DNA of 64,000 nucleotides from Nitrospirota bacterium (GCA_963790025.1 CAWBMP010000002.1:352001-416000); one strand, 5' to 3'; positions 39,083 through 53,534 are shown, counted from the first letter of the stretch. Numbers and translations are program-made. The notes: generated by a model from the letters alone, not told the origin.

Positions 39083-40020
39083 CGGGAATATCTTCTCTCA
39101 GCCTTGAGCAGGAAAAACTTTGCTATTGCAAGAACGATAAAACTCATTACGAAAAGGACAAGGGCCAGATAAAAAAGTGACGATAGATAGAGGTCTTTAT
39201 CGGCCTCGGTAAATTCATTGGCAAGCGTTACGGTAATGGTTGCAGCGGCATCAAAGAGCGACGTGGTAATCTGGTGATTATTTCCAAGGACAAAAGCCAC
39301 TGCCATAGTCTCGCCGAGCGCCCTGCCAAGGGATAGAACGACTCCTCCGTAAACACCGAGTTTTGAGTAAGGCAGTACAACGTTTTTCACAACCTCCCAT
39401 CTAGTTGCGCCGATGGCGTAAGCGGATTCCTTCACCACGGAAGGCGTCAAATTGAAAGAATCCCTTGAAATACTCGCAGTGAACGGTATAATCATAATGC
39501 TCAGGATGACACTCGCCGTCAGGATGTCGATGCCCATTGGGGTGCCGCTGAACAATATTCCGACTACGGGCAATGCGCCGAAGGTCTTCTGAAGAGCGGG
39601 TTCTATATACTTTGACATGATGGGGGCCAGTGTGAACAGCCCCCACATGCCGTAAATGATACTGGGTATTGCCGCCAGCAGTTCGATAGCGATCCCGATT
39701 GGTCCCTTCATGAAATTAGGAGCTATTTCAGTGACGAAAATAGCGATCCCGATAGCAAGCGGAATTGCAATTATGAGAGCGAGCACTGTTGTAACAAAAG
39801 TCCCGAAAATGGTAGTCGCAGCCCCGAAAGATTCTTTTACAGGGTCCCAATCGGTGGATTTCAGGAAATTTATGACGCCGAAATGGCCGATAGCCAGCGA
39901 CGATTCCCGTATAAGCACGTATAAAATGCCCAAAATCAAAAGAACTACCACTGAAGATGCTAATGCGGTGACAATAGAAAATGCGAAATCAGCAGAGTTC
40001 TTCTTATCAAGAATTGGCAA
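39079..40020 (-). CDS. pstC: Phosphate ABC transporter permease PstC
   Basis: ELLAAIPSIIYGMWG, GRALGETMAV. Confidence 0.96.
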   Translation of the reverse strand: MPILDKKNSADFAFSIVTALASSVVVLLILGILYVLIRESSLAIGHFGVINFLKSTDWDPVKESFGAATTIFGTFVTTVLALIIAIPLAIGIAIFVTEIAPNFMKGPIGIAIELLAAIPSIIYGMWGLFTLAPIMSKYIEPALQKTFGALPVVGILFSGTPMGIDILTASVILSIMIIPFTASISRDSFNLTPSVVKESAYAIGATRWEVVKNVVLPYSKLGVYGGVVLSLGRALGETMAVAFVLGNNHQITTSLFDAAATITVTLANEFTEADKDLYLSSLFYLALVLFVMSFIVLAIAKFFLLKAERRYSR

Positions 40021-40050
40021 ACAGCTTGCTCCTTTTTGAAGAAATTAATC

Positions 40051-40125
40051 AAATGTTGAACGTTAAATGTTGCCGAGCACTCAAAGCGCCTGTGATTAGC
40101 GTGTTGAGCGCTCGGCAACATTTAA
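40051..40125. repeat. Long hairpin with heptamer (RAAYGTT) units between pstS and pstC
   Basis: 16-bp perfect stem TTAAATGTTGCCGAGC (40063-40078)/GCTCGGCAACATTTAA (40110-40125). Confidence 0.8.
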
Positions 40126-40140
40126 TATCAAGAAGCAACT

Positions 40141-40178
40141 AAAAGGGTCAGGATATATAATACATGCCTGACCCTTTT
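40141..40178 (-). terminator. Hairpin after pstS (terminator or mRNA stabiliser)
   Basis: AAAAGGGTCAGG/CCTGACCCTTTT inverted repeat. Confidence 0.75.
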
Positions 40179-40191
40179 AATTCAATTAACT

Positions 40192-41202
40192 TTAATACAC
40201 GCCATACTCTTTCCAGTAGGCCCTGACCTTGTTCTTTAGGCCTTTGGGAAGCGGCACGTAAATCAGCTCTTTTGCTTTTGCATCCCCGTTCTTGAATGCC
40301 CAATCATAAAACTTAACGGCTTTCATAGCGCTTTCCTTTTTATCCTTGGCAAGCAGAATAAAGGTTGCGCCTGCGATTGGCCAGGAGTTCTTGCCAGGGG
40401 CATTAACGAGCCAGAGATCAAAGTCTTTTTTCGGATCGAAATTCGCTGAGGCAGCAGCATCTTCAAAGGCTTCGAAGCTCGGCTGGATAACTTTTCCTGC
40501 CGAATTTTTCAGCGCTGTATACGCCAGCTTGTTCTGTATTGCATAGGCAAATTCGACGTAGCCGATAGAATTCGGGGCCTGTTTTACATAGTTGGACACT
40601 CCCTCATTCCCCTTACCGCCTATACCGATTGGAAACTTTACAGATGTGCCTGCTCCAACTTTTGTTTTCCACGCAGGACACACATCGCTGAGATAATTGG
40701 TAAATATCGCGGTGGTACCGGAGCCGTCAGACCTATGGACAATGGAAATTTCACTGTGCGGCAATTGAACAGTCGGATTTAGGGACTTGATCTTTGCATC
40801 ATCCCAGAATTTTATCTCGCCAAGATATGCTTTGCATATGGAATCGGAGTCAAGTTTTAATTCGCCGGCTTTTAAGCCAGGCATGCTGACCACTAGAACG
40901 ACCCCTCCCATGACGGCAGGGAACTGGATCAAACCGTCTTTCTTGAGTTGTTCAGAGCTGAGAGGTGCATCGGATGCTCCGAAATCGACCGTCCGGGCTG
41001 AAATCTGCCTGATACCTCCGCCTGAGCCGATGGACTGGTAATTGATCCTGACGCCCGTAGCCTTCTGATAATCATAAGCCCAGGACTGATATACCGGGGC
41101 AGGGAATGATGCACCTGCGCCATTTATTATGTCCTCTGCATGCACCATGCTAAATGACAAGATACAAGCCACTGCTAAAATCAAACTTATTACTGATTTC
41201 AT
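40192..41202 (-). CDS. pstS: Phosphate-binding protein PstS
   Basis: GAGASFP, YQSIGSGGG, VDFGASD, RSDGSGTT, GNEGV. Confidence 0.97.
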   Translation of the reverse strand: MKSVISLILAVACILSFSMVHAEDIINGAGASFPAPVYQSWAYDYQKATGVRINYQSIGSGGGIRQISARTVDFGASDAPLSSEQLKKDGLIQFPAVMGGVVLVVSMPGLKAGELKLDSDSICKAYLGEIKFWDDAKIKSLNPTVQLPHSEISIVHRSDGSGTTAIFTNYLSDVCPAWKTKVGAGTSVKFPIGIGGKGNEGVSNYVKQAPNSIGYVEFAYAIQNKLAYTALKNSAGKVIQPSFEAFEDAAASANFDPKKDFDLWLVNAPGKNSWPIAGATFILLAKDKKESAMKAVKFYDWAFKNGDAKAKELIYVPLPKGLKNKVRAYWKEYGVY

Positions 41203-41240
41203 AGTTATTCCTCCTTTTGTTAGAGCAACTTGGTTATCAT

Positions 41241-41295
41241 AGCATAAGACTTTTTTGTTACGGGAATGTTACAGGAGAGTTAAAAATATATTACA
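41241..41295 (-). promoter_or_regulatory. Pho-box-like array plus -10, pstS
   Basis: Plus-strand hexamers gttacg/gttaca/gttaaa/attaca at 41257, 41268, 41279, 41290; TATGCT 10 nt downstream. Confidence 0.85.
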
Positions 41296-41396
41296 ATCAC
41301 CTCCCGTTATTCATTTTATTCATAAATACAACAGCTTGCTCCATGAGGTAGAGGGCTAAAGGCTAATGTCTAACGAGACGTGCGCCCTTTGTGGCC

Positions 41397-41585
41397 TTAA
41401 AAAAAAGGACATTTCTTATGCTGTTTACTCTTACAATATTCTTCGAGCTGAAACAGACTTGGCACATATGGTGCCTCGCCTGCCTGGCAAGTATATATAA
41501 GCCATTTGGTAAGATAGGGGCATTTCAGGCGCTTGGATTCAACTTTTACAAATCCGTCTTCCCTTCTTGCCGTGCCGCTTATCAT
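41397..41585 (-). CDS. 4-Cys microprotein, copy 1
   Basis: CPYL..C-x17-C-x7-CPFF; paralogous to 50929 and 51281. Confidence 0.7.
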   Translation of the reverse strand: MISGTARREDGFVKVESKRLKCPYLTKWLIYTCQAGEAPYVPSLFQLEEYCKSKQHKKCPFF

Positions 41586-41591
41586 GTGACG

Positions 41592-41846
41592 TTACCCCAT
41601 TCCGATTGCAGCGAGAATTGCCTTGTTAGTTACCATTTCTTTCACATAGTTCTCTATATTAACGAGAGCGGGATCATAGGTGATAACAAGGCTGCCGGTA
41701 ACCGGATTGGCACGGATATCTTTAATACCGTCAGGGACAGGAAGAGCCGACAATTCTTTCAATGTTGCAATAGAAAGTTTCCTGATTATCGGCACCTGCA
41801 ACCTGATGCGTCCAGGAACATGGTGTACCACCTTATAGTCGATCAT
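41592..41846 (-). CDS. Stand-alone HMA_2-domain protein
   Basis: HHVPGRIRL...GI..I.ANPVTGSLVITYD. Confidence 0.85.
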   Translation of the reverse strand: MIDYKVVHHVPGRIRLQVPIIRKLSIATLKELSALPVPDGIKDIRANPVTGSLVITYDPALVNIENYVKEMVTNKAILAAIGMG

Positions 41847-41872
41847 CCACGCACCCCTTGACTTTCTTATTC

Positions 41873-41928
41873 ATTAAATCATAACTATTCTTACAAAATG
41901 ATGAATTTGTTGTTACAACTTAATGACA
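41873..41928 (-). promoter_or_regulatory. Pho-box-like array
   Basis: cttaca/atgaat/gttaca/atgaca at 41890, 41901, 41912, 41923; TTTAAT 11 nt downstream. Confidence 0.65.
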
Positions 41929-42060
41929 TTTCAGCAGAGATACGCGATGCAAGGTGATAGGCCAAAGGTAAAAGGTCAAAGAATTTATAACAGCCTATCT
42001 ATAAATGGGTAGGCGGTGTATAGGCCTAACGGCCTGAACAATTCATTTTTCGATAATGCG

Positions 42061-43254
42061 TTACTGTGATTTAAGCAGGTGGGCTTTATCGGTAATTTCC
42101 CATGGCAGCCCTATATCCATCCTGCCGACGTGTCCATAAGCTGCAAGCTTCCTGTAGAAACCTCCTTTAATCGCTGAAGGGAGGCGTCTCAGCTGAAACT
42201 GCCTTACAATACCTGCAAGCCTGAAATCGAAGTTTTTATCAACCAGGTCGGCAATAACAGTATCGGACAGTCTGCCGGTGCCGAACGTCTCTACCTGAAT
42301 GCTCACCGGATGGGCAAGTCCTATCGAATAACTGAGCTGGATTTCGCACTCGTCAGCAAGACCGGCCGCAACCACATTCTTTGCGGCGTAACGCGCCGCA
42401 TATGCGCCGATCCGGTCAATTCTCATCGGGTCCTTGCCGCTGAGCGCTGCACCGCTGTGGCGAGAGTACTCCCCATATGTATCAATAGCATTCTTTCTCC
42501 CGGTAAGCCCCGAATGGATTGACGGGCCTCCGGTAATAAACTGGCCGTCGGGATTGACGAAAATCCTGGTATCCTTATCCGGCTTCACGGCCTCATCATG
42601 GAATACATTGTCGATAATGGCCTCCCGTACATCACTGGTTAACTGTTTCAGATCAGGACCTGTGCCCTTCCTCTGGCTCGCAATTACCGTTATGCTGTGT
42701 ATCCTGTGAGGACGACGGTCTTTGAACTCCACACCCACCTGGGTTTTGCCGTCCTGGGAAAGATACGGAAGTATCTTCTGAAGTCTCGCTGAAGTGAGCC
42801 GTCTTGCGAGTTTGTGCGCCAGCCATATTGGAAGCGGCATAAATGCGGGAGTTTGCTTACAGGCGAAACCAAAAACCGTAACCTGATTTTTTACCGGGAC
42901 ACTGTCTATTTCACTCTCCGTCATCTCCCGTTCATCAAAACAGCAATCCGGGTCGCGGGGCGATTCTTTGAGGCTTGTTAAAATACTGCACGTTTTCCCG
43001 TTGAATTCCTGCCGTTCATAGCCAATCTGGCTTATCACCTGGCGGGCTATATAGGGGAAGTCCACATAAGCATCTGAGGAGTATCTGGCCGCAATAAAGA
43101 GAATGGAAGTCGAGACGGCGCATTCTGCTATAACGCGCGAGTACGGGTCCTGCTGGAGAAAGTGGTCTACGATAGCATCGCTTATCTGGTCACATAGTTT
43201 ATCTGGGTGCCCCTCGGTCACAGATTCGGATGTAAACATGAAATCTTTTTTCAT
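42061..43254 (-). CDS. Divergent S-adenosylmethionine synthetase (MetK) paralogue
   Basis: FTSESVTEGHPDK, GLTGRK, SGKDP, AAYGH present; GAGDQG signature replaced by PVKNQV. Confidence 0.9.
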   Translation of the reverse strand: MKKDFMFTSESVTEGHPDKLCDQISDAIVDHFLQQDPYSRVIAECAVSTSILFIAARYSSDAYVDFPYIARQVISQIGYERQEFNGKTCSILTSLKESPRDPDCCFDEREMTESEIDSVPVKNQVTVFGFACKQTPAFMPLPIWLAHKLARRLTSARLQKILPYLSQDGKTQVGVEFKDRRPHRIHSITVIASQRKGTGPDLKQLTSDVREAIIDNVFHDEAVKPDKDTRIFVNPDGQFITGGPSIHSGLTGRKNAIDTYGEYSRHSGAALSGKDPMRIDRIGAYAARYAAKNVVAAGLADECEIQLSYSIGLAHPVSIQVETFGTGRLSDTVIADLVDKNFDFRLAGIVRQFQLRRLPSAIKGGFYRKLAAYGHVGRMDIGLPWEITDKAHLLKSQ

Positions 43255-46200
43255 ATCGCTTCACCTCGCATAGTTTTCTTTGTCGCTTCATTGACAACCA
43301 GAGGGAGTACCGCGCTTCCACCGATTACAAGGGCATCGGTAAGATTTATCATCGTAGTTCCGAGCAGTCCTCTTAGTCCGGGCACCGCTATTGTCAGGGC
43401 CTGCAGCGCAAAAGACCCCCCAAGGGCAACGTCCAGATATCTGTTCGCGGGCAGCCGCTCCTTGTCGAACATACTCAGTCTCTCAGAACGGCAGCTTATG
43501 GCATGCAGAAGCTGACTTGAGGTGAGACTCATAAAGGCCAGGGTCCCTGCCTGAGCTCCAGGACCGTACCGCATGACGCCATATCCGTAAGCTCCGAGCG
43601 CAGTCGCACTCATCATCGCAGATTCGAAACCGATCCTTTTAAAGTCACTGCTCATGATAATAGGATGGTTAGGATTACGCGGAGGCTTGCTTAGGACGTC
43701 GGGTTCAGGGAGTTCAAGTGCCAATGCGAGCCCGGGGAATATATCGGATATGAGGTTGATCCAGAGCAATTGCATCGCACTAAGCGGCTGTCCAAGACCG
43801 GCGGCAGTGGCGGTGAACATTACCATAATTTCGCTCAGGTTTGTCGACAGGATGAAGTGCAACGATTTTCTGATATTGTTATAAATGGTGCGTCCATGAC
43901 TTACCGCGATAATCATGGTCTCAAGATTGTCGTCTTCGAGCACAATATCCGCCACCTCACGAGCGACGTCTGTGCCGGTGTGGCCCATTGCAATTCCTAT
44001 GTCGGCTGCCTTGAGCGCAGGGCCGTCATTAATACCGTCACCGGTCATGGCGACAACTTTCCCTGTGCTCTGCAGGGCCTGCACAATTTGAAGCTTATGC
44101 GCCGGACTCACGCGGGAAAAGACATGGACCCGCCCGGCAAGCGCTTTCATGACATCGGGTTCAATATCCGTAAGGTGCGTCGAATCAAGAATTTCGAGTT
44201 GTTCTCCGTTGCTCAGGTCCAGCTCGTTTCCGATGGCATAGGCCGTCGGCGTCTGGTCCCCGGTTATCATAACTGTTTCTATGCCGGCTGAGTGGAAAAC
44301 GCCGATCAGTTCCTTGACCCCCCTTCTCGTAGGGTCTGCCATACCTACAAGACCGAGCCAGACGAAACCGCTGGTGATGTCGCAGGCACTGCTTCCGTTT
44401 TCTATATGTTGATACGCGATGCCGAGGATCCTGAGTGCTTCACCGGCCATTCGTTCATTTTCCGTTTCCATTGCGAGCCTGTCATCAACTGAAATCGGGA
44501 ACTTTTCGCCGTCCTTTATATACAAGTCGCACATTTCCAGCACTTCTGTAGGGCTGCCTTTCAGTGCTATGATCTTGCCCTCGGGGCCGAAGTCATGTTG
44601 GGTGGCCATATAATTGCGGTTTTCAGCACGGTAACATATTTTCAGTAACGGGTACATCTTTCTGATTTGAATGATGTCGACGCCTGCACAAATCGCCATA
44701 TGCATCAGGGCATTCTCGGTTGGTGATCCCCGCAGCACATATCTTCCTTCTCCATTTTCATAACAACTGCTTTCTGCAGGCGCCTCACCGGCATGTTCTT
44801 TTACGCTGATTTCAGATTCGTTGCATAGCACAGATATATGAATAAGCCTCATGAACTCGTCCGAGGCATAGGGGTTAACTGTCTCAACCCCGACCATAAA
44901 TTTGCCGTCCCTTGCCTTTATTCTCTTCATTCCTGTATAAATTGCAACAACCGACATCCTGTTCAATGTTATAGTGCCGGTCTTGTCCATACATATAGTT
45001 TGCACAGAGCCGAGAGTTTCGACTGCGTTGAGATGACGGATAAGGACTTTATGCCGTCTCATATTCCTGATTCCGAGAGCGAGGGTCGTGGTGGCAACGG
45101 TCGGCAGCCCTTCGGGGACCGCTGCTACAGCAAGAGAAATCGAGCTTTTAAGCATCTGGATGAAACCGTATCCCCTGAGCAGCCCTATAAGGAAAACAAC
45201 ACCGCAGACAGCCCCGCTGATCAACACAAGCTGTGTACCCATTTTCTTGAGCTGCCGCTCCATAGGTGTCTCGGGAGACTCCGCAGCTCCCACGAGTTCC
45301 TGTATTTTTCCTATCTCAGTAAACTTTCCTGTGGCCACGACCACTGCAAGGCCCTGTCCCCCCGTAACCAGGGTGCCCATATAGGCCATGTTGACCCTAT
45401 CAGCAAGCGGCACATTGTCTTCGTCTATGCTCTCTGTAGTCTTCACGACCGGCAGGCTCTCGCCGGTAAGCGCAGATTCATCGACGCTCAGATAGGTCGC
45501 TTCAATCAGCCTGCTGTCGGCGGCAATATAGCTGCCGGGCCTGAACACCAGCATATCGCCAACGACCACCTCCTCGGCAGGGATATCTTTAAAAATACCG
45601 TCCCTTATGACAAGCGAGGATGGCCTTACAAGACTTTTGAGCGAGTTAATGGTTTTTTCCGCCTGGCTCTCGGTGACATAGCCGATGACCGCATTGATGA
45701 CCACTACTCCGGCAATAACCACAGCATCAGCGACGCCGCCAGTCACTATCGAGAGACCGGCTGCAACACCCAGCAGGGCATTCGGGATCGAATTGAATTG
45801 ATCGATAAGAATACTGAATGCTGAACGTGGAACTGATTCAGGGAGCAAATTGGGGCCGAATTTCTTTAGTCTGGCTTGAGCGCTATCAGTTGAAAGACCG
45901 GCAGTTGCCGAGGAACCCAAACGCTTAAGGACTGCGGATGGTGCTTCGGTATGCCATGCCTCTACCGTCTGGTCTTCCGCGTGTTCAACAAGTCTTCTTA
46001 ATTTTCCCCTGCTTTTTACTGGGACAGAAGACCGGACAACATTGGCCTTGCCGCTTTCTACAACAGGGAAAGGGTACCCGGGCGCAGTCTCTGACTGAGT
46101 AACTGTATTTGCAGCCTGCTGAAAGTCGCCGCCTTGATATTCGCGGACGATATCATGAATAAGATGCGCTATGGCATGAGGGGTATTGAAGGAATTGAAA

Positions 46201-46364
46201 TAGACGAGAACACTGCCGGTCAATATGTTTATTGAGACGTCACTAATCCCCTCTAAGCCAGAAAGGCCTGATTCAAGGTGTTTTTTTAGAGATTCCGAAC
46301 GACGAAGCCCCTCTACCTTGTATCGGACCCTTCCCGGCACTGCCGCATGTACTGTCTCGACCAC
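43251..46364 (-). CDS. P-type ATPase (P2A, Ca2+-type motifs) with an N-terminal HMA_2 domain
   Basis: TGES, VAAVPEGLP, DKTGT, MITGD, GDGIND, M5 STNLSE, M6 WINLISD; N-terminal VPGRVR..NILTGSVLV. Confidence 0.93.
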   Translation of the reverse strand: MVETVHAAVPGRVRYKVEGLRRSESLKKHLESGLSGLEGISDVSINILTGSVLVYFNSFNTPHAIAHLIHDIVREYQGGDFQQAANTVTQSETAPGYPFPVVESGKANVVRSSVPVKSRGKLRRLVEHAEDQTVEAWHTEAPSAVLKRLGSSATAGLSTDSAQARLKKFGPNLLPESVPRSAFSILIDQFNSIPNALLGVAAGLSIVTGGVADAVVIAGVVVINAVIGYVTESQAEKTINSLKSLVRPSSLVIRDGIFKDIPAEEVVVGDMLVFRPGSYIAADSRLIEATYLSVDESALTGESLPVVKTTESIDEDNVPLADRVNMAYMGTLVTGGQGLAVVVATGKFTEIGKIQELVGAAESPETPMERQLKKMGTQLVLISGAVCGVVFLIGLLRGYGFIQMLKSSISLAVAAVPEGLPTVATTTLALGIRNMRRHKVLIRHLNAVETLGSVQTICMDKTGTITLNRMSVVAIYTGMKRIKARDGKFMVGVETVNPYASDEFMRLIHISVLCNESEISVKEHAGEAPAESSCYENGEGRYVLRGSPTENALMHMAICAGVDIIQIRKMYPLLKICYRAENRNYMATQHDFGPEGKIIALKGSPTEVLEMCDLYIKDGEKFPISVDDRLAMETENERMAGEALRILGIAYQHIENGSSACDITSGFVWLGLVGMADPTRRGVKELIGVFHSAGIETVMITGDQTPTAYAIGNELDLSNGEQLEILDSTHLTDIEPDVMKALAGRVHVFSRVSPAHKLQIVQALQSTGKVVAMTGDGINDGPALKAADIGIAMGHTGTDVAREVADIVLEDDNLETMIIAVSHGRTIYNNIRKSLHFILSTNLSEIMVMFTATAAGLGQPLSAMQLLWINLISDIFPGLALALELPEPDVLSKPPRNPNHPIIMSSDFKRIGFESAMMSATALGAYGYGVMRYGPGAQAGTLAFMSLTSSQLLHAISCRSERLSMFDKERLPANRYLDVALGGSFALQALTIAVPGLRGLLGTTMINLTDALVIGGSAVLPLVVNEATKKTMRGEAI

Positions 46365-46370
46365 GTAACT

Positions 46371-47039
46371 TTATTCTTCCCTTTTCGTTTTATGCTTTGT
46401 AGAAATTTCAGCCGGCCCGCTGGAAGAGGGTCCTGATGCAGACGAACGCGGCAGCGCGGAGCCGGCAATTTCCTTAACTCCGGAAACGACGCCGACCAGC
46501 ATGTCCTTTACAGCTCGCACTGCCGTATTCCCGATCGAGCCCGCGGCCTCTATTGCCCCGCCAACAGCGACAGTAGCGGCCTCTTCGACATTCCCACCTA
46601 CTTCTTTCGTAGCTTCAATTACACCGTCAACGGCCCTTCTCGCTACGAGTGCCACATCGGCACCGACTTCGGCAGCCCCCTTGACAGCGCCCTTAACGGT
46701 CTGCTCGGCAACTTTCATAACATCCCCGCCAACATCGCTGACGCCCATTACGATGCCCTTGGCAACGCTTTTGGTGCTCAGGATTAAGCCTGTGCCGACC
46801 TCTTCCGTAGCCTGAATTGCACCTTTTACCACATCTGCGGTAATAGTAACACCTTCATTAGCCACAGATGCAGTCGCTTTCAGGGTATTCGATACAGTAT
46901 TTCTGACAAGACTCACGATTTCCGCCTCGATTTCGTTTATCCCCTTCAGACTGCTTACAATCCCCTCTTTCACCTTTGTTCCGGCTGCGCCAATATATGC
47001 AGCCCCCTCTGAACCGACCTTCCCTTCGCTCTTAGCCAT
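46371..47039 (-). CDS. Ala/Val/Gly-rich protein with 22-residue amphipathic repeats
   Basis: GGAGG SD before ATG 47039; six or more tandem 22-mers. Confidence 0.85.
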   Translation of the reverse strand: MAKSEGKVGSEGAAYIGAAGTKVKEGIVSSLKGINEIEAEIVSLVRNTVSNTLKATASVANEGVTITADVVKGAIQATEEVGTGLILSTKSVAKGIVMGVSDVGGDVMKVAEQTVKGAVKGAAEVGADVALVARRAVDGVIEATKEVGGNVEEAATVAVGGAIEAAGSIGNTAVRAVKDMLVGVVSGVKEIAGSALPRSSASGPSSSGPAEISTKHKTKREE

Positions 47040-47123
47040 GATAATGCCCTCCATTTTTACACCTTTTAATTGTGTTGTTTTTAGCGTGCCGTAAAGTAGC
47101 GGCGTCACGGCGCATAGCTGCCG

Positions 47124-47609
47124 CTACTTTCTCTCCTCATCAGCGGCAGCAGGCAATGATTTCAGAAATACGTTTAATGCATACCAGAAGGCGGTATACC
47201 ACGCAGGAGCTGCAAAGTTTCCACTTGCAATTTCGTAAACACCGAACCCGACAAGAGTAACGAAAGCAACTCCGGGTACATCCACTTCGTTACCGGTAAA
47301 TTTTTTCACTTTTTTATCAAAGCCACTGAAAGCATTGACAATATTGGCGGACAGAGCTGTGGTCCGTGGCCCTTTTTTGAGCTTGAAAAGTGCCTTTCCC
47401 TCGGCAAATGCTGCAATGGCCTTTAAATCAGCAGTATGTATAAATAACAGACTGCCTGTCAGGGCATTTGCATGGACCTGCTCAACTCCCTCAAATTGCG
47501 CAAAGTGATCCTGCAAAGCAGAGAAGTAGGCGGCATCTCCTTTCCTTCCAGGCACTTTTACCCTGAATCTTCCAGGCGTTGCGTGGCTCAAAATGGCTTC
47601 AGGTATCAT
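47124..47609 (-). CDS. HMA_2-domain protein with a hydrophobic C-terminal segment
   Basis: HATPGRFRV...ANALTGSLLF; APAWYTAFWYA. Confidence 0.85.
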   Translation of the reverse strand: MIPEAILSHATPGRFRVKVPGRKGDAAYFSALQDHFAQFEGVEQVHANALTGSLLFIHTADLKAIAAFAEGKALFKLKKGPRTTALSANIVNAFSGFDKKVKKFTGNEVDVPGVAFVTLVGFGVYEIASGNFAAPAWYTAFWYALNVFLKSLPAAADEERK

Positions 47610-47896
47610 TAAGCTCCTGTTTTGTCCTCGGGGTTAATGCCGGTTGTTTCAGTATGAGATTCTGCCATTTCAGCCTTTACCTCCGCAACGATATCTTCCA
47701 TCATTTCCCCTGCTTCCGCGAAAGTCTCTCTGCTTTTTTCATAGAGTATAAGGCCGCCCTTTATTGCAGCTTTTGCAATCGGTTTTACGACTCCTGCAAT
47801 CGCAGGAATCACCTGCGGGGCAAATAGGGCCGCGCCAATACCTATAGCCAATCCTGTAAGGATATTACCTTTTAACCCATTTTCAAATAGTGCCAT
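47609..47896 (-). CDS. DUF5132-like protein
   Basis: GLAIGIGAALFAP..KPIAKAAIKGG..YEK..AEAGE..EDIVAE. Confidence 0.85.
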   Translation of the reverse strand: MALFENGLKGNILTGLAIGIGAALFAPQVIPAIAGVVKPIAKAAIKGGLILYEKSRETFAEAGEMMEDIVAEVKAEMAESHTETTGINPEDKTGA

Positions 47897-48063
47897 GGTT
47901 TCCTCCTTGTCGGTCTTTAAGTAAAGTGTATATTAATATGGGTTCAAAGTAAATGTAACCCAAACTTTTCATTACTTGCCTACTTTCAAGACAGGTAATC
48001 AGGAGACAGTTAAAGAATTCTTCACTGTTAAAACCTTTGCTGTGACATGTTAAAACCTTTGTC

Positions 48064-48091
48064 TTGACACTCTTCATTTTTCGGCTATACT
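48064..48091 (+). promoter_or_regulatory. Sigma70-type promoter
   Basis: TTGACA-16 nt-TATACT. Confidence 0.65.
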
Positions 48092-48093
48092 TT

Positions 48094-48125
48094 AATTGGA
48101 GCGTATATAAATTGGAGCGTATATA
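48094..48125 (+). repeat. Exact 16-bp tandem duplication
   Basis: AATTGGAGCGTATATA x2. Confidence 0.9.
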
Positions 48126-48144
48126 AAAAGGGAGGTGCATCGCT

Positions 48145-48306
48145 ATGCCTATTGAAGTGAGCGTCACAGAACGGGAACTGCTGAAGAAGATCCTCAATTC
48201 GTATCTTTCAGAGCTGAGACTTGAGATCGTCGAAACGAAACACGACAAATCGTCCCTCCATGAAGAAGAGAACCTCGTAAGAGGGCTGCTGCAAAAGGTA
48301 TCCTAA
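48145..48306 (+). CDS. 53-aa helical hypothetical protein (not in the ORF track)
   Basis: GGGAGGTG SD; MPIEVSVTERELLKKILNSYLSELRLEIVETKHDKSSLHEEENLVRGLLQKVS*. Confidence 0.8.
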   Translation: MPIEVSVTERELLKKILNSYLSELRLEIVETKHDKSSLHEEENLVRGLLQKVS

Positions 48307-48328
48307 CTGTTGTTATGCCTTGTTCCCC

Positions 48329-48370
48329 GCCGAAGCTACCCGCTCCACCCGGGTGGCTTCGGTCGATTTT
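48329..48370 (+). terminator. Intrinsic terminator
   Basis: CCGAAGCTACCC/GGGTGGCTTCGG stem with a short T tail. Confidence 0.65.
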
Positions 48371-48387
48371 AACAGCGTAATAGATTA

Positions 48388-48443
48388 TGTAACTTAAAAT
48401 TAATATTTCTGTAAAACTGCTTTAACCCTCTATCCTTTAAACT
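48388..48443 (+). promoter_or_regulatory. Pho-box-like array plus -10, olsB/olsA-like operon
   Basis: tgtaac/attaat/tgtaaa/tttaac at 48388, 48399, 48410, 48421; TAAACT 11 nt downstream. Confidence 0.75.
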
Positions 48444-48583
48444 ATACAAATTCACATCGTGACATCAGAAATAATGAATATCCAATTTTACTATGTTACC
48501 AAGCACTTAAAGCGTATATGGATAATGTATTGAGTGTCCTGCGACATGCAGCATTCAACATTTCCCATAGAGGAGGTGCATTT

Positions 48584-49378
48584 ATGGAACACACTCAATG
48601 TACGGTTCTGAGCATGCGCAACGGTAATTTTATTGTGAAACTTGCTGAATACCATGAGGAACTGGTTAAAGCACTCAGACTGCGTTTTGATGTATTCAAT
48701 AGAGAATTGAACGAGGGTCTTGACAGCTCTTATATGACCGGGATGGACCGGGACAGTTACGATGACTATTGCGACCATCTTATTGTAATCGATACAAGAT
48801 GTAACAAGGTTGTAGGCACCTATCGCCTCCTCCTTGGTTCGGTCGCAGAAAGCAATATCGGCTATTATTCGGAGGGTGAATTCGACATGACCGGCATCAA
48901 GGCTATAGGTGGAGAGAAACTTGAACTCGGCCGATCCTGCGTCCACAGTGATTACAGGAATGCAGGTGTCATCAACCTGCTTTGGGCCGGCATAGCGCGG
49001 TACGTGGAAATGTACGATGTACGCCATTTATTCGGCTGCGGCAGCCTGCACACCGATGACCCTGTTGAAGTAAGCATGGTATACTTTTATATGAACACGT
49101 TTCACCGCTCGGGCGCCGAATTTACGGTGTACCCCATGAAAAAGCTGCGCGGGGTCGGCTTATGCCCTATTGTGGACCAGAAAACCGCGTTCGATAAACT
49201 TCCCCCGCTTATTAAGGGATACCTGCGGCTCGGAGCACTTATATGCGGAGAGCCGGCCTACGACGACGTATTCGGCACTACCGATCTCTATCTGCTACTG
49301 GAAACCGAAAAGTTGATCTCCCGGTATAAAAGGAGGTTTTTCCAGGAGCCAAACGAGACGTTATGCCGGGCATCGTAA
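48584..49378 (+). CDS. GNAT N-acyltransferase, OlsB-like (amino-lipid synthesis)
   Basis: LRFDVF, D.YDDYCDHL, VVGTYRL, YSEGEFD, ELGRSCV, PPLIKGYLRLGA. Confidence 0.85.
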   Translation: MEHTQCTVLSMRNGNFIVKLAEYHEELVKALRLRFDVFNRELNEGLDSSYMTGMDRDSYDDYCDHLIVIDTRCNKVVGTYRLLLGSVAESNIGYYSEGEFDMTGIKAIGGEKLELGRSCVHSDYRNAGVINLLWAGIARYVEMYDVRHLFGCGSLHTDDPVEVSMVYFYMNTFHRSGAEFTVYPMKKLRGVGLCPIVDQKTAFDKLPPLIKGYLRLGALICGEPAYDDVFGTTDLYLLLETEKLISRYKRRFFQEPNETLCRAS

Positions 49379-50157
49379 AAATCCGAAAATTATTTCTCCT
49401 TCTTATAGTTAGCCTTTTCGTTTTTGTCTGTGGTATCCTGATCAAAGTCTTTCCCCTTGAACAGGGTCGAAAATTGAGTCTTCAGACACGCTTCATGCGG
49501 TTATGGGCACGGTCCGGCTGTTTCATCCTCGGCATCAATATTGCCTCCACCGGCTCATATAGAGCTGACGATGTTTTTTTTATCGTGAGCAATCATTGCA
49601 GCTATATCGATATACTTATTATCGGCAGTCTGATTCCATCCGTATTCGTTTCAAAAAGTGATGTGGCCTCATGGATATTCCTTGGGAGGATGGTAAAACT
49701 TGCCGGGACCATTTTTGTCAACCGGGAATCCAAAACAGCTTCGGTCAGAGCAATGGAGGCCATTAAGGAGCGACTTGCAAACGGCATCAATGTTGTGGTT
49801 TTTCCTGAAGGTACCACCAATAACGGACTTGCTATCAGAGATTTCAAGAGCACCTTTTTCAAGGCGCCCATCGACAGTAACGTGCCTGTTTTGCCTGTGA
49901 GCATTATTTATTCGCACATAGATCGAACTCCCGTGACACCCGGCACAATAGACGCCGTCGCCTGGCACTCAGACATGGAGTTTCTTTCTCATTTTTGGAA
50001 CCTTCTCGGTATCGGGAGGATTGACGCGCGTATTCATTTCAGTCCGCCCCTCTACCATTTTACCGAAAACAGAAAAATACTTTCTTCTTTTGTCTTTGAG
50101 AAAGTCAGAGATGGAATAGAAATTGGAAGATGTTTTAGAGAAGAAGATACTTGTTGA
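49363..50157 (+). CDS. PlsC/OlsA-like lysolipid acyltransferase
   Basis: NHCSYID (HX4D), FVSK, FPEGT; overlaps the upstream GNAT gene. Confidence 0.88.
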   Translation: MPGIVKIRKLFLLLIVSLFVFVCGILIKVFPLEQGRKLSLQTRFMRLWARSGCFILGINIASTGSYRADDVFFIVSNHCSYIDILIIGSLIPSVFVSKSDVASWIFLGRMVKLAGTIFVNRESKTASVRAMEAIKERLANGINVVVFPEGTTNNGLAIRDFKSTFFKAPIDSNVPVLPVSIIYSHIDRTPVTPGTIDAVAWHSDMEFLSHFWNLLGIGRIDARIHFSPPLYHFTENRKILSSFVFEKVRDGIEIGRCFREEDTC

Positions 50158-50206
50158 ATGGGACAATTAGCCTGGCGGCAAGAAAGCGGCTGCGTTCGCG
50201 GCAGTT

Positions 50207-50578
50207 TTATATCAGGACAGCTAATATTGAGAGGGCCGAACCTTCCAATGCCTGCTGGACAAAGGCACCCAAAACCGCCCTGCCCACGATATGACCGGCT
50301 GTTTTAGCTGCTCCATGAATATACTGATCAGTGGTTGCCGCCTTTGTCGTATCGAAATAACCTTTTCTCTGCAATATATTGATAATATCGTTGTGGCCGG
50401 TCATTTTGGGGTTATAGTTTACCAGAAGACTACCGGTAGTAAGGTTAATATCGATTGTCGCAATACCCTGCAGCTGACTTAATGTCTTTTTTAACTCGTT
50501 AGCCACGTTTTCGTTCTTTTTTATTACAGGGCTTTTTATTCTGAGTCTTCCAGGCACATTATGAATGTAATAGCTCAC
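50207..50578 (-). CDS. HMA_2-domain protein
   Basis: HNVPGRLRI...INLTTGSLLVNY; AGGAGGAG SD. Confidence 0.85.
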   Translation of the reverse strand: MSYYIHNVPGRLRIKSPVIKKNENVANELKKTLSQLQGIATIDINLTTGSLLVNYNPKMTGHNDIINILQRKGYFDTTKAATTDQYIHGAAKTAGHIVGRAVLGAFVQQALEGSALSILAVLI

Positions 50579-50873
50579 TATCTCCTCCCTTCATGTCAAT
50601 TTTCGTGAATGTTTTACAATCTGGATATCCCGAACACCTGAACCGCAATATTTTTTCTTCCCTTTTATATAAATGCATCATTCTTCCGCAAACCGGGCAC
50701 AGAGGCCTGTTTTTTACTTCAAATCTTACGGCACCGGCGCTAAACTGCCTGCCGCATATAAGACATAGGAACCTCTGTTTTCCCTGCCACGTCTTACCAT
50801 ATTTATACACGGCATCCAACTTGCAGTGCGGGCATTTAGTTGTAAAGCTTTGTGTCACCGCATCTGCTGTCAT
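50559..50873 (-). CDS. Double zinc-ribbon protein (IS1 InsA-like ribbon + topoisomerase C4-like finger)
   Basis: CPHC..KYG...GKQRFLCLIC; CPVCG.MM..RFRCSGYPDC. Confidence 0.75.
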   Translation of the reverse strand: MTADAVTQSFTTKCPHCKLDAVYKYGKTWQGKQRFLCLICGRQFSAGAVRFEVKNRPLCPVCGRMMHLYKREEKILRFRCSGYPDCKTFTKIDMKGGDSELLHS

Positions 50874-50894
50874 GTAATATTTAATCAAATTATG

Positions 50895-50933
50895 GTTACA
50901 CGACTATGACAGTTTTGTTACTTTTGTGTTAAA
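50895..50933 (-). promoter_or_regulatory. Pho-box-like array
   Basis: gttaca/atgaca/gttact/gttaaa at 50895, 50906, 50917, 50928. Confidence 0.8.
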
Positions 50934-51144
50934 TCTCGGCACACCGGGAAAACTCGGATAGCTTGCCATCCCAAGCAGGCTGCAATGCGCAAAAATAAAT
51001 CGAACACGCTTCATGATGACGGCCCATGCATACTTTAATATTGACATCTCTCATGTCTTTAATAAGTCTGTCCGCCGCATAGCAGTGAGCACCTTCAGAG
51101 GTCCCCTTAAGGTAAGGGCACATTATAAGACTTTGCATATTCAT
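50929..51144 (-). CDS. 4-Cys microprotein, copy 2
   Basis: GGAGG SD; CPYL..C-x17-C-x7-CSIY. Confidence 0.75.
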   Translation of the reverse strand: MNMQSLIMCPYLKGTSEGAHCYAADRLIKDMRDVNIKVCMGRHHEACSIYFCALQPAWDGKLSEFSRCAEI

Positions 51145-51165
51145 AATACCCTCCATACCATAGAT

Positions 51166-51221
51166 AGAATAGCAGTTGAATTGTTACAAGAATATTAAAA
51201 TAATGTTACATTCTTGTAACA
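51166..51221 (-). promoter_or_regulatory. Pho-box-like array plus -10
   Basis: gttaca/attaaa/gttaca/gtaaca at 51183, 51194, 51205, 51216; TATTCT 11 nt downstream. Confidence 0.75.
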
Positions 51222-51280
51222 AAGAATTAATCGGTTCTGGGTCATAGAAAAATTATATTTTAACTCGGGGCACATACTCT

Positions 51281-51487
51281 TTATCTACTTCGCAAGGTCC
51301 TGGCAAGGAAAATTGGACAATTATCATAATTCTCGTTATCGCAATGACCTGCCCTTCTGTTTGTATCGATTACCATTCGTGAAAGAGAGGCTGCACAAAT
51401 ACCGCTCTCGTCATTGCAATACGGACAGTTATGCTCCTCACGTATAACGGCATAAATAGCTTCGCTCCTGGTTGCACACGTGTCCAT
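51281..51487 (-). CDS. 4-Cys microprotein, copy 3
   Basis: AGGGGG SD; CPYC..C-x17-C-x7-CPIF. Confidence 0.75.
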   Translation of the reverse strand: MDTCATRSEAIYAVIREEHNCPYCNDESGICAASLSRMVIDTNRRAGHCDNENYDNCPIFLARTLRSR

Positions 51488-51498
51488 ATAAGTGCCCC

Positions 51499-52728
51499 CT
51501 AGGCGAATCGCCCCTTTATAGCATCGATAATTCTGTAACGCAACGACCAGAAACCGTTTTCGGGACATGGGAACAGCATCGAATCTTTGCCGATACTATA
51601 CCGGTTACCCCTCCATACAACAGTATTGCTGACAATCGGTACAGACCATATGAGCCCGATAACAAGGTCTTTAATCGGGGAGAGCAAATAAAGAAAAGGG
51701 TTATCCATTTCGGTTTCCGTCTTTCTGCCAATATAAAAGTCGCCTGCCACTTTAAGGAGGGAGGTGAGAATCGCAAAGGTCACCGTCAATTTGGAGCACT
51801 CCCAGAATACGATCGGTAACGATGACATGAACACAGGATTCCCAACTAATTCGAATATATATCTCACCCCTCCGATCTTCCACCTGATCTTACCCCATCT
51901 TGTGTGGCGGTTAAGGAATCGACTCATTCCCCAGTATTCATTCACGTTTTGCACCATGTACCTGGACAGCACCACTTTTTTGCCGCTTTTATGCATTCTT
52001 TCACCGATAACATAATCCTCGGCAAGAATATCTTTTACCGATCTGAGCCCGCCGATTGCTTCCAAATCCTTTTTTTTCATCAGCATGGACTTTCCTACCA
52101 CACAGGGCATTTTCAAAAATTTATCAAGAAAACACACGCTTCCCATAATAAAAGAATTAAGGTGGAGGTTTTCAAATACGGAACCCAGCGAACGGCCGCC
52201 GACACCTTTTATAATATTGCTTACTAATCCGACTTCATGGCCTGTTTCCGGCTGGCTGATATGACTGGTTATCTCCGTAAGATAATTTGAGTCAACCATT
52301 ACATTGCTGTCGCTGATAAGAATATACTCATACTTTGAAGCCTTGTAAGCTGGAAGAAGATTATTGACCTTGGGATTGAGGCCTATAGAGGAATCTTTTA
52401 CAATAATGGTGATGTCCTTGTCCTGGTTTTTTTCCTGTATTTTTTGTGCTATTTTGTATGCAGGATCATTATGGCTCTGAAGAGAGAATATAATCTCATA
52501 TTCAGGATAGTCCTGTGCGCAAAAGCTCAGGAGATTGTCAAATAGATTATCATCCAGGCCCTTAAGCGGCTTAAGTATCGAAATTGGAGGAAAAAGTCGG
52601 GGAAGGGCCCGTTGCCCTTCCCCGCAGTTACAGGGAGTGGAAAGATATGAGCGTACTGCCCATATTTGGAAGCCGTAAGCGACGAGACCTAAAAAAGTAA
52701 CAAATGCGAAGAACCAGAATATACCCAT
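51499..52728 (-). CDS. Ceramide glucosyltransferase/HpnI-like glycosyltransferase (GT21/GT2)
   Basis: N-terminal TM, PISILKPLKG, GLNPKVNNL, ISDSN, LAEDY, RxxRW. Confidence 0.88.
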   Translation of the reverse strand: MGIFWFFAFVTFLGLVAYGFQIWAVRSYLSTPCNCGEGQRALPRLFPPISILKPLKGLDDNLFDNLLSFCAQDYPEYEIIFSLQSHNDPAYKIAQKIQEKNQDKDITIIVKDSSIGLNPKVNNLLPAYKASKYEYILISDSNVMVDSNYLTEITSHISQPETGHEVGLVSNIIKGVGGRSLGSVFENLHLNSFIMGSVCFLDKFLKMPCVVGKSMLMKKKDLEAIGGLRSVKDILAEDYVIGERMHKSGKKVVLSRYMVQNVNEYWGMSRFLNRHTRWGKIRWKIGGVRYIFELVGNPVFMSSLPIVFWECSKLTVTFAILTSLLKVAGDFYIGRKTETEMDNPFLYLLSPIKDLVIGLIWSVPIVSNTVVWRGNRYSIGKDSMLFPCPENGFWSLRYRIIDAIKGRFA

Positions 52729-52750
52729 ACTTCCACCTCCTTTGAAGCAC

Positions 52751-53440
52751 TTAGTTTCTGAAAAGGGTAATTGCCACCCCTTTATTATGTTTGATGCATT
52801 GTTTCACTGCTGCCGTATCTTTCTCGCAATTGAGAAGTGTCTTCCATGAATACAGGTGACGCGCCTTGTGAAAATCGCTATTGGCGAGATAAGGATACTT
52901 TTTAAGGCTTATTACATTAAAAACATCGTCCCTGTTTGCCACTTCCCATGCATCGATGTATTTGGCATATTTTTCCCTGTTGTTCCAGAGGAAAAGCGTG
53001 TCCTTGCTCATGTCCGACATATAATGCGGGTGGCAGGCCACTATCAGCGCATCCTGCTCCTTTGCCTCGGAAAATATTTTTTCGTAGTTCCAGGAGGCAG
53101 AAATAAAATCTTTTATATCAATTAGCAGCATATGGGCCGATTTGTCGGATGACAGATGGTTTTTGCTGATTTCAACTCCTGGGATCACCAGCATCCCGTA
53201 CTTGTCCCATGCCCTTTCAGCTTCCTCTTTGACATGTTCCATATACTCGTCGAAATTGTCTTCTCTCACTGTAAGATTGAAGCGATGGGCAAACTTTCCG
53301 ATCGAGTTGACTTCACTTACTACATGGTCCGTAATTGCGATAACATCGAACCCTGCCTGTCCAAAAAGGTCGACGGTCCGTTTTAACTCTACTGAACCGT
53401 CGGAGTAGGTGGTGTGTATATGGAAATCGCATAAAAGCAT
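52751..53440 (-). CDS. PHP-domain metallophosphoesterase
   Basis: DFHIHTTYSDG, AITDH, PGVE, CHP, NSDFH. Confidence 0.9.
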   Translation of the reverse strand: MLLCDFHIHTTYSDGSVELKRTVDLFGQAGFDVIAITDHVVSEVNSIGKFAHRFNLTVREDNFDEYMEHVKEEAERAWDKYGMLVIPGVEISKNHLSSDKSAHMLLIDIKDFISASWNYEKIFSEAKEQDALIVACHPHYMSDMSKDTLFLWNNREKYAKYIDAWEVANRDDVFNVISLKKYPYLANSDFHKARHLYSWKTLLNCEKDTAAVKQCIKHNKGVAITLFRN

Positions 53441-53447
53441 CACATAC

Positions 53448-53513
53448 ATACTATTATTTATTCGGTTACAGGATTATTAAGGGCTTATTAAGATTGTGTT
53501 ACGTTATGTTACG
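53448..53513 (-). promoter_or_regulatory. Pho-box-like array plus -10
   Basis: gttaca/attaag/attaag/gttacg at 53465, 53476, 53487, 53498; TAGTAT 11 nt downstream. Confidence 0.8.
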
Positions 53514-53534
53514 AAAATATGGGATGGGCTTTTC

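Follow-up and report, generated by a model that had tools for sequence, protein, structure and literature searches.

A conserved gene module that pairs a CoBaHMA-fused, putatively Ca2+-type P-type ATPase with a divergent MetK paralogue in Nitrospirota and other phyla

The stretch of DNA investigated here, a window of 64,000 nucleotides from a Nitrospirota bacterium (GCA_963790025.1; contig 2, 352001-416000), stems from a genome of 3.45 Mb that is 98.8% complete and harbors a conspicuous gene cluster between positions 41397 and 47896. Its core comprises the genes of a DUF5132 protein, a CoBaHMA/HMA_2 membrane protein, a protein of 22-residue repeats, a P2-type pump that is fused to a CoBaHMA domain, and a divergent paralogue of the methionine adenosyltransferase (MAT) MetK, designated MetK2 in the following. 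These core genes represent a conserved unit. The module may tie divalent-cation (Ca2+-type) pumping to the metabolism of phosphate or polyphosphate, and MetK2 would then be the enzyme that handles triphosphate or polyphosphate, a reading of the sequences in which we place about as much belief as doubt.

Gene order and distribution of the module

Seven minus-strand open reading frames (ORFs) were confirmed within the interval, their domains by Pfam and their junctions by coordinates and sequence. This is in accordance with the preliminary description of the locus, which had listed the same genes and domains and pointed to their tight junctions. The stop codon of the DUF5132 gene overlaps the start of the gene for the 161-aa CoBaHMA protein (TAATG at 47609), the repeat gene is separated from the pump by 6 nt, and the stop of the pump and the start of MetK2 share the four nucleotides ATGA (43251-43254). 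Another 6 nt lie between the last two genes, which encode an 84-aa CoBaHMA protein and the microprotein Cys62. Between MetK2 and the 84-aa CoBaHMA gene lies a spacer of 214 nt that holds a conserved promoter of its own, and the seven genes thus constitute two transcription units. The start of the repeat gene was revised from GTG 47108 to the likeliest codon, ATG 47039, which is located behind GGAGGG as in the orthologues and therefore leaves a spacer of 84 nt upstream of the gene. Related genes extend beyond the interval, namely a third small CoBaHMA protein, a zinc ribbon and two 4-Cys paralogues at 50207-51568.

The preliminary description had proposed a neighborhood survey as a check on synteny, and a survey of this kind, comprising 84 related loci, documents that the genes are syntenic across at least six phyla. 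The baits were the pump (one genome per species, 76 loci) and an alignment of 11 MetK2 proteins (80 loci), and the taxon groups were assigned by hand from the record titles. Partner genes were counted by tblastn, ORF clustering having undercounted genes in GC-rich loci; since many contigs are short, the counts represent minimum values. Full-length matches of the pump that include its N-terminal domain were found in 18 loci, i.e. 11 Nitrospirota (65-87% identity) and seven others (48-54%) from Nitrosospira, Sedimenticolaceae, Competibacteraceae, other Gammaproteobacteria and a member of the Desulfobacterales. Judged by the pump, the nearest relatives are metagenome-assembled genomes (MAGs) of Nitrospirota, one of them titled Dissulfurispiraceae. 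MetK2 is located directly downstream of the pump in 17 of these 18 loci (the exception is L017), and the order DUF5132, 161-aa CoBaHMA protein, repeat protein, pump and MetK2 is identical in ten Nitrospirota loci.

The MetK2 bait retrieved 66 loci with at least 54% identity and 14 with at most 48%, the latter representing canonical MetK. The pump is found directly upstream of MetK2 in 65 of the 66 loci, and the remaining one (L118) is a contig without upstream DNA. Altogether, the two genes occur together in 82 of the 84 loci, in 81 of them on the same strand and within 400 nt; the gap in L112 amounts to 471 nt. Two controls were negative: the 14 canonical-MetK loci hold no gene of the cluster, and no partner is present in 58 loci of ordinary P2A pumps, which are 35-41% identical and do not match the N-terminal domain. 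The other core genes are less strictly associated, with DUF5132 present in 60 and the repeat protein in 39 of the 84 loci, the latter including one of ten gammaproteobacterial and none of 14 cyanobacterial loci. The invariant pair of pump and MetK2, whose stop and start codons often overlap, is usually accompanied by DUF5132 and the CoBaHMA-hairpin protein; the repeat protein, the additional small CoBaHMA proteins, the zinc ribbon and the 4-Cys microproteins vary with the lineage.

The carriers comprise Nitrospirota, Desulfobacterota (Desulfomonile, Syntrophobacteraceae, Syntrophus, Desulfobacteraceae, Geobacteraceae), Binatia, Myxococcota, Roseiflexus, Nitrosospira (including the cultured strain Nsp14), Chromatiaceae and other Gammaproteobacteria. 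They are joined by 14 Cyanobacteria, among them Tolypothrix, Nostoc, Chlorogloeopsis fritschii PCC 6912, Fischerella thermalis PCC 7521, Crocosphaera and Rivularia. Within the own phylum, MetK2 (64-80% identity) was detected in only 17 of 121 sampled genomes, the source genome included, and in four of seven other genomes of the same family, thus indicating that the module is accessory and patchy.

The preliminary description regarded the cluster as an undescribed system. The unit as such is conserved and apparently undescribed, but parts of its composition have been published, as neighbors of ccyA and as the architecture of the fez clusters (see below). A pairing of pump and MetK2 was not found described in the literature searched, a scope outside of which the CoBaHMA family paper and the bioRxiv supplements lie. 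CoBaHMA and DUF5132 proteins, so far discussed only as ccyA neighbors, here occur in many phyla within a tight, portable module that includes a Ca2+-type pump, and a strict pairing with an enzyme would be new for P2-type ATPases.

Several gammaproteobacterial loci (L013-L016, L018) share an accessory set of their own. A Zn_peptidase_2 gene is located directly upstream of the pump and a PHA_gran_rgn protein after MetK2, and the set further comprises a CitMHS-family permease with tandem Usp, EcsC and NUDIX.

The pump, its membrane partners and MetK2

The pump (1037 aa; 43251-46364, minus strand) was characterized with Pfam, PDB and NCBIfam searches and with the columns of an orthologue alignment. 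Pfam recognizes HMA_2 at residues 5-63, followed by Cation_ATPase_N, E1-E2_ATPase and Cation_ATPase_C. The CoBaHMA domain (HAAVPGRVRYK) extends from residue 1 to about 80 and is succeeded by a variable basic linker and a body that resembles SERCA, SPCA and LMCA1. The body carries TGES at 300, PEGL at 417, DKTGT at 460 and GDGIND at 775, and a motif scan for P1B and P1B-6 pumps found neither CPC/CPH nor D[YF]SCA/HNxxT. The closest solved structures are SPCA1 (5e-138), LMCA1 (2e-133) and SERCA (about 1e-119), and the two top-ranking NCBIfam models describe Ca2+ pumps of the PMR1 and SERCA types.

Across 73 orthologues, D460 of DKTGT and the TGE of TGES are invariant. The same holds true for N842 and E845 in M5 and for N870, S/T873 and D874 in M6, each found in 73 of 73 sequences, and the PEGL glutamate E418 in M4 is present in 72. 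These columns, which correspond to the Ca2+ ligands of SERCA, are shared with LMCA1, SPCA1 and SERCA, the closest pumps by sequence, from which the protein differs by about 135 extra N-terminal residues (CoBaHMA domain and linker) and by a Gln in M8. Judged from these features it is a Ca2+-type P2 ATPase of a distinct subfamily, and the ion itself we infer. The proposal that it represents a Ca2+-type P2A rather than a P1B pump had already been made in the preliminary description, and the ligand columns, the ranking of PDB and NCBIfam matches and the motif scan all agree with it.

The genome contains seven matches to Pfam HMA_2 (PF19991), four of which are located in the window, with 35-56 bits against a cut-off of 30. 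According to the available text of a preprint (Bruley et al., bioRxiv 10.1101/2024.07.07.602159), HMA_2 corresponds to the CoBaHMA family, whose signature is given, in the part of the source at hand, as a conserved His upstream of strand 1 and conserved basic residues without CxxC (PMC8890360). A regulatory role, possibly exerted through anionic lipids, has been proposed for the domain, as far as papers citing Gaschignard et al. 2024 relate. All four copies of the window exhibit the pattern H..PGRxRx(K/Q) and no Cys. In the pump, the His is conserved in 69 of the 73 orthologues and both R12 and R14 in all of them.

The first core gene encodes the DUF5132 protein (95 aa; 47609-47896, minus strand; Shine-Dalgarno sequence AAGGAGG), which matches PF17195 with an E-value of 1.4e-17 and 63.9 bits (cut-off 25). 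It consists of a single N-terminal hydrophobic helix (residues 12-37) that contains GLAIG, a GxxxG motif, and a subsequent amphipathic helix. The adjacent 161-aa CoBaHMA protein (47124-47609, minus strand; PF19991, 2.5e-12, model positions 11-153) combines an N-terminal domain (HATPGRFRVK) with a C-terminal hydrophobic hairpin. Of five cyanobacterial loci scanned, two (L102, L097) encode a single 190-aa protein that joins DUF5132 to the hairpin portion of the HMA_2 model, and this gene fusion argues that both proteins act together. The third copy is the soluble 84-aa protein (HHVPGRIRLQ; 41592-41846, minus strand; PF19991, 1.3e-08). The third free-standing CoBaHMA protein, with 123 aa (HNVPGRLRIK; 50207-50578, minus strand; PF19991, 6.5e-15), has a hydrophobic C-terminus; tblastn located it in 48 of the 84 loci, some matches of which may be the N-terminal CoBaHMA domain of the pump itself.

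Further associations of CoBaHMA domains with P-type ATPases were noticed. A Desulfobacteraceae MAG harbors beside the module a 730-aa P-type ATPase with a CoBaHMA-like N-terminus and without PEGL (L124:389-2581, minus strand), and in a Syntrophobacteraceae MAG a second CoBaHMA-fused pump with PEGL directly follows MetK2 (L138:7034-10009, plus strand). Elsewhere in the source genome (L170; contig 4, 1484000-1500000), the gene of a 106-aa HMA_2 protein is followed by one for a protein with a MgtC/SapB C-terminal domain and adjoins an 892-aa P-type ATPase and a PTS EIIA-2 domain protein.

The repeat protein (222 aa from ATG 47039; 46371-47039, minus strand) was delimited by its start codon, by autocorrelation, by an AlphaFold2 (AF2) model and by an alignment of 20 orthologues. 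It is rich in Gly, Ala, Val, Glu and Lys and comprises about seven units of 22 residues, as seen by autocorrelation, and a disordered tail rich in Ser, Pro and Lys. The AF2 model predicts eight helices of about 20 residues with a predicted local distance difference test (pLDDT) score of 62.5, and its Foldseek matches (E <= 0.001) are designed helical-repeat proteins only, without a natural relative. No family was found in Pfam or NCBIfam, and an Atlas search returned unnamed clusters only. The earlier comparison with an apolipoprotein-like coat is thus reduced to an analogy, the model being a helical solenoid that matches designed repeats.

MetK2 (397 aa; 42061-43254, minus strand), assigned by Pfam, NCBIfam, alignment and phylogeny, carries all three S-AdoMet synthetase domains and matches the best MAT in the PDB with 1e-101. 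It scores 385 bits with the metK equivalog TIGR01034 (cut-off 309; the canonical copy of the same genome scores 595), and automatic annotation would therefore call it MetK. Members of its clade probably carry ordinary methionine adenosyltransferase names in public genomes. The second MetK of the genome is 47% identical to MetK2, adjoins an AhcY-like gene (recognized by eye) and exhibits the classical motifs GAGDQG, GGPxGDxGLTGRK and HGGGxFSGKD. Both types are present in four of five other carriers searched, the fifth being a MAG. In a quick tree of 45 rows, the 34 MetK2 sequences form a clade of their own, separated from 11 canonical ones with a maximal Shimodaira-Hasegawa-like approximate likelihood ratio test (SH-aLRT) value of 100.

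The comparison of these 34 and 11 sequences, numbered after Escherichia coli K-12 MetK (b2942), revealed a characteristic pattern. Of the catalytic residues for triphosphate and metal, E8, H14, D16, K245, K265 and D271 are retained in all MetK2 proteins and K165 in 31 of 34, and K269 is uniformly replaced by Arg. The methionine ligand D238 is His in every member, E55 has become Arg (27), His (6) or Lys (1), and Q98 is variable, in contrast to canonical MetK with E55, Q98 and D238 intact in 11 of 11. Glycines G115, G117 and G120 are gone from the GAGDQG motif, with D118 being Asn (19), His (6), Asp (5) or Gln (3). In the HGGGAFSGKD glycine loop, G258 is Ser in 33 of 34 and G260 is Ala or Ser. 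Adenine contacts are altered as well (T227 to Asp or Glu, R229 to Pro), and the gating loop is longer, with 7-8 residues inserted ahead of the FY motif. Compared with the canonical enzyme (E. coli b2942; PDB 1FUG/1RG9; TIGR01034), MetK2 hence shares the three-domain fold, GHPDK, K165, K245, K265 and D271 but differs in E55, Q98, D238, GAGDQG and the gating loop.

In the sections of the human MAT2A study at hand (PMC6850014), E70, Q113 and D258, the equivalents of E55, Q98 and D238, hold the amino and carboxyl groups of methionine, and Ser247, Arg249 and Phe250 touch the adenine. The tripolyphosphatase activity of MAT2A is described there as independent of S-adenosylmethionine (SAM) formation. 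The methionine site of MetK2 thus appears to have turned from acidic to basic with the triphosphate chemistry kept, and MetK2 probably either takes tripolyphosphate, short polyphosphate or a nucleoside triphosphate (NTP) as its substrate or adenosylates a different anionic acceptor. The triphosphate-handling enzyme postulated in the preliminary description fits better than a SAM synthetase, given that catalytic residues are kept and methionine ligands replaced. The loss of the methionine pocket argues that the module probably does something so far undescribed. MetK2 would represent a clean case of neofunctionalization in one of the most conserved enzymes, hidden by annotation.

Phosphate context and possible functions

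The cluster is located between pstSCAB-phoU on one side and olsBA, a PHP phosphoesterase and a GT21 glycosyltransferase on the other, so that phosphate-linked gene clusters flank the core at 36.8-41.2 kb and 48.5-53.5 kb. To this context belong Pho-box-like arrays, scored as KTAACA-like hexamers of which three of four occur at the exact 11-bp phase. The window contains 10 hits at six places, compared with a mean of 3.15 and a maximum of 7 in 20 shuffles. Intergenic arrays, phased direct repeats just ahead of a -10 element, precede pstS (41256-41305), olsB (48388-48427), the zinc ribbon (50894-50933), Cys75 (51183-51231) and the PHP gene (53464-53502), and the promoter of the 84-aa CoBaHMA gene resembles such a phased array only in part. 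Across the 84 loci, arrays at most 300 nt upstream were found for PstS (16), the zinc ribbon (15), Cys75 (11), the 84-aa CoBaHMA protein (8), OlsB (7), the 123-aa CoBaHMA protein (7), DUF5132 (5) and the repeat gene (5). In other lineages the module has PstS (L107), alkaline phosphatase with phytase/GDPD (L117) or a PhoU-domain kinase (L016) beside it. The surroundings fit a phosphate-starvation island, and the link to the Pst system drawn in the preliminary description is real at the level of the neighborhood, with respect to both the pst genes and the Pho-box-like arrays.

On this basis, a coupling of cation transport and phosphate metabolism can be outlined. The pump would export Ca2+ or a similar divalent cation from the cytoplasm. 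The basic face of the CoBaHMA domains (His, then RxRxK) may bind an anionic partner such as an acidic lipid or polyphosphate and thereby target or gate the pump, with DUF5132 and the hairpin protein as putative membrane partners. MetK2, presumably no longer making SAM, would bind or hydrolyze tripolyphosphate, short polyphosphate or NTP. The module as a whole could thus couple the mobilization of phosphate under phosphate limitation to the disposal or sequestration of the divalent counter-ion.

Several observations weigh against this coupling. The pump stays below the NCBIfam cut-offs of both Ca2+-ATPase models (TIGR01522, PMR1-type, 606 vs 798 bits; TIGR01116, SERCA-type, 520 vs 703 bits), and the M8 position, aligned by eye with the site I glutamate E908 of SERCA, is Gln in 62 and Glu in only 8 of the 73 orthologues, which makes the pumped ion uncertain. 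MetK2 passes the metK equivalog cut-off, and an adenosyltransferase activity on another substrate could persist; the adenine-stacking F230 is retained in only 16 of 34 members, thus weakening an ATP-based reaction. The Pho-box scoring is self-devised and was fixed on the pstS promoter of this window. For the core operon of the window the scan returned no array; the nearest full one (olsB) is located about 490 nt upstream, and an inversion (see below) has left the ancestral array with the 84-aa CoBaHMA gene. Furthermore, most loci have no phosphate gene in reach (PstS in 13 of 84), and ppk, ppx and CHAD did not turn up in the scanned ORFs.

Tentatively, and with clearly less confidence than the coupling outlined above, the module may be envisaged as building or maintaining a storage body or organelle, a role that the preliminary description had raised as a speculation next to that of a membrane-remodeling complex. 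This would be a Ca-rich inclusion that lies within a membrane compartment and consists of Ca-polyphosphate or amorphous Ca-carbonate, comparable to the ferrosomes of the fez clusters. The pump would load the lumen, DUF5132 and the CoBaHMA-hairpin protein would give the membrane its shape or mark it, the repeat protein would serve as scaffold or coat, and MetK2 would handle polyphosphate or tripolyphosphate. The architecture agrees with the fez clusters as far as they are described in the available text (Grant et al., bioRxiv 10.1101/2020.01.10.902569), according to which the P1B-6 ATPase FezB, FezC and FezA are encoded by genes that are needed for ferrosome formation. Common to both are an N-terminal RxR(xR) motif of the P-type ATPase, small soluble and two-transmembrane proteins that share this motif, and small hydrophobic proteins with GxxxG, represented here by the GRxRx(K/Q) of the four CoBaHMA copies and the GLAIG of DUF5132. 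FezC is annotated as HMA in the same text. Ferrosome clusters are, in that account, likewise patchy and mainly found in anaerobes, and ferrosomes are induced by shortage of the stored nutrient.

A second parallel is provided by calcifying cyanobacteria. In Microcystis aeruginosa PCC 7806, the accessible part of bioRxiv 10.1101/2024.07.07.602159 places DUF5132 and CoBaHMA genes next to ccyA and a Ca2+/H+ exchanger, as candidate genes for intracellular amorphous Ca-carbonate, and reports their co-expression with ccyA. The ccyA neighborhood described there shares with the present one a single-transmembrane DUF5132 protein, CoBaHMA proteins, one of them with a C-terminal helical hairpin, and a Ca2+ transporter. 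Its transporter is a Ca2+/H+ exchanger and its marker gene calcyanin, and a CoBaHMA-fused P-type pump, a MetK paralogue and a 22-mer repeat protein are not among the neighbors described in that part of the source. The module is present in C. fritschii PCC 6912 and a Fischerella; inclusions rich in Ca and P are seen in C. fritschii strains, and PCC 9212 produces intracellular amorphous calcium carbonate (iACC), as stated in the consulted sections of PMC8890360. The determinants of iACC outside the Cyanobacteria are given as not known in the part of PMC11773610 at hand, and the module is a concrete gene set that could bear on Ca-carbonate and Ca-phosphate inclusions outside this phylum.

Other points speak against such an inclusion. 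No inclusion is known for this organism or most carriers, and the iACC strains that the available sources name do not include most of the cyanobacterial carriers found (Tolypothrix, Nostoc, Rivularia, Crocosphaera and others). A P-type Ca2+ pump is moreover reported as absent from the iACC-forming magnetotactic genomes studied, according to the accessible portion of PMC11773610. The repeat protein, the putative scaffold, is missing from 14 of 14 cyanobacterial and nine of ten gammaproteobacterial loci. In comparison with fez, the pump is of P2 type with Ca2+-type ligands and PEGL rather than P1B-6, the neighbors concern phosphate instead of iron, and MetK2 and the repeat protein are additional. 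No iron-homeostasis gene was found among the genes scanned at 32-62 kb, and a fez-type pump, sought by motif in the related loci, was not found in any of them. The most explicit version of this scenario, a kit for a so far unrecognized calcium store of Ca-polyphosphate or Ca-carbonate that was spread by gene transfer over at least six phyla, cyanobacterial lineages with Ca-rich inclusions included, that is the counterpart of the ferrosome and in which a former SAM synthetase processes tri- or polyphosphate in connection with the pump, appears doubtful, a shade more so than the inclusion itself.

An unlikely alternative to the triphosphate-handling role of MetK2 is that it adenosylates a different, anionic or non-amino acceptor, and that the pump system or the synthesis of phosphorus-free lipids would need the resulting SAM-like or adenosylated metabolite. 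The catalytic triphosphate residues are kept, and both acidic ligands of the methionine amino group are basic in every member, a pattern more like substrate switching than decay; the clade is also clearly constrained, with a mean column identity of 72% over three phyla, and the lipid-remodeling genes olsBA and GT21 adjoin the module in this genome. However, the adenine contacts have changed too (T227, R229 and the variable F230), and the lipid neighbors are almost restricted to Nitrospirota, which account for 10 of the 11 loci (of 84) that hold an OlsA homologue; the link to the pump, by contrast, is universal.

We consider it more improbable still that an ordinary Ca2+ efflux pump with small regulatory proteins merely shares its operon with a genuine second SAM synthetase. 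P2A pumps commonly serve Ca2+ efflux, and the metK equivalog score of MetK2 is compatible with an isozyme, but other residues take the place of the methionine ligands in all 34 members, a canonical MetK is present in the same genomes, and a housekeeping isozyme would not be expected to adjoin the pump as strictly as is seen, across phyla, in 81 of 82 loci. A chance juxtaposition of unrelated genes is refuted by the synteny in at least six phyla with its negative controls and by the overlapping junctions, even if the scans for promoter-like and terminator-like signals are not above chance (17 vs 14.8 and 12 vs 9.9) and therefore by themselves provide no evidence for an operon.

Inversion, small Cys proteins and flanking genes

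The orientation of the core operon is a peculiarity of this genome. Blastn comparisons with four close relatives (L004, L006, L009, L019) showed that a segment of 5.9 kb (42069-47995) is reversed, with collinear flanks at 41000-41936 and 48384-49000. In 10 relatives the 84-aa CoBaHMA and Cys62 genes are divergent from DUF5132. The co-orientation of all seven genes, which had been emphasized in the preliminary description, is thus secondary, and that of the two transcription units accidental because of the inversion. A search for inverted repeats that could explain it yielded short imperfect pairs only, none of them at the breakpoints. An insert of 392 bp (47996-48387), which is absent from the four relatives and single-copy in the genome, is located at the right breakpoint. 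It contains a plus-strand ORF of 53 aa (48145-48306) without an NCBIfam family, preceded by a near-consensus promoter-like sequence (TTGACA, 16 nt, TATACT; 48064-48091).

Both promoter regions of the cluster are conserved in an alignment of nine genomes. The Pho-box-like promoter of the 84-aa CoBaHMA and Cys62 genes (41878-41927, minus strand) shows the hexamers GTCATT, GTAACA, TTCATC and GTAAGA at 11-bp phase, followed by TATGAT, and the nine-genome form reads GTCAyw, GTAACA, TTCATC, GTAAGA. The promoter region of the core operon (47930-47983, minus strand) comprises the element GTAGGCAAGTAATGAAAAG (47965-47983), a -35-like TTACAT (47953-47958) and, after 17 nt, a -10-like TAATAT (47930-47935). 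A riboswitch was rejected, since a permissive Rfam search of 40000-54000 gave two weak matches far below the gathering scores.

The three 4-Cys proteins of the window are paralogues with the pattern CP(Y/H)x..C..C..C(P/S). Cys62 (62 aa; 41397-41585, minus strand; CPYL..C..C..CP) belongs to an alignment of 40 sequences; it has no Pfam family, and its predicted fold is of low confidence (pLDDT 48). Its alignment-based paralogues are Cys75 (75 aa; 50929-51156, minus strand), with the array at 51183-51231 in front, and a 95-aa ORF (51281-51568, minus strand), for which the relatives suggest a start near 51487. Using these queries in tblastn against the 84 loci, 4-Cys microproteins were found only in those of Nitrospirota. 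The zinc-ribbon protein (109 aa; 50559-50888, minus strand) combines C4 ribbons of the IS1/InsA and Top1 types according to Pfam and NCBIfam, and its gene, detected in 23 of the 84 loci, usually stands immediately ahead of the gene for the 123-aa CoBaHMA protein, with which it belongs to the accessory part of the system.

Genes for an OlsB-like N-acyltransferase and an OlsA-like acyltransferase of ornithine-lipid synthesis are located at 48518-50157 (plus strand), with NCBIfam matches below cut-off, and the pair is conserved in relatives together with the array at 48388-48427. The PHP-domain phosphoesterase (52751-53449) and the HpnI-like GT21 glycosyltransferase (51499-52728), both on the minus strand, follow behind the array at 53464-53502 and are possibly a unit of the phosphate island for phosphorus-free glycolipids or hopanoid modification. 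Elsewhere in the window, a protein of 911 aa (33712-36447, plus strand) is a fusion in which CoA-binding, succinyl-CoA-ligase-like and ATP-grasp domains are joined to a GNAT domain at the C-terminus, in an order like that of Pat-type protein acetyltransferases.

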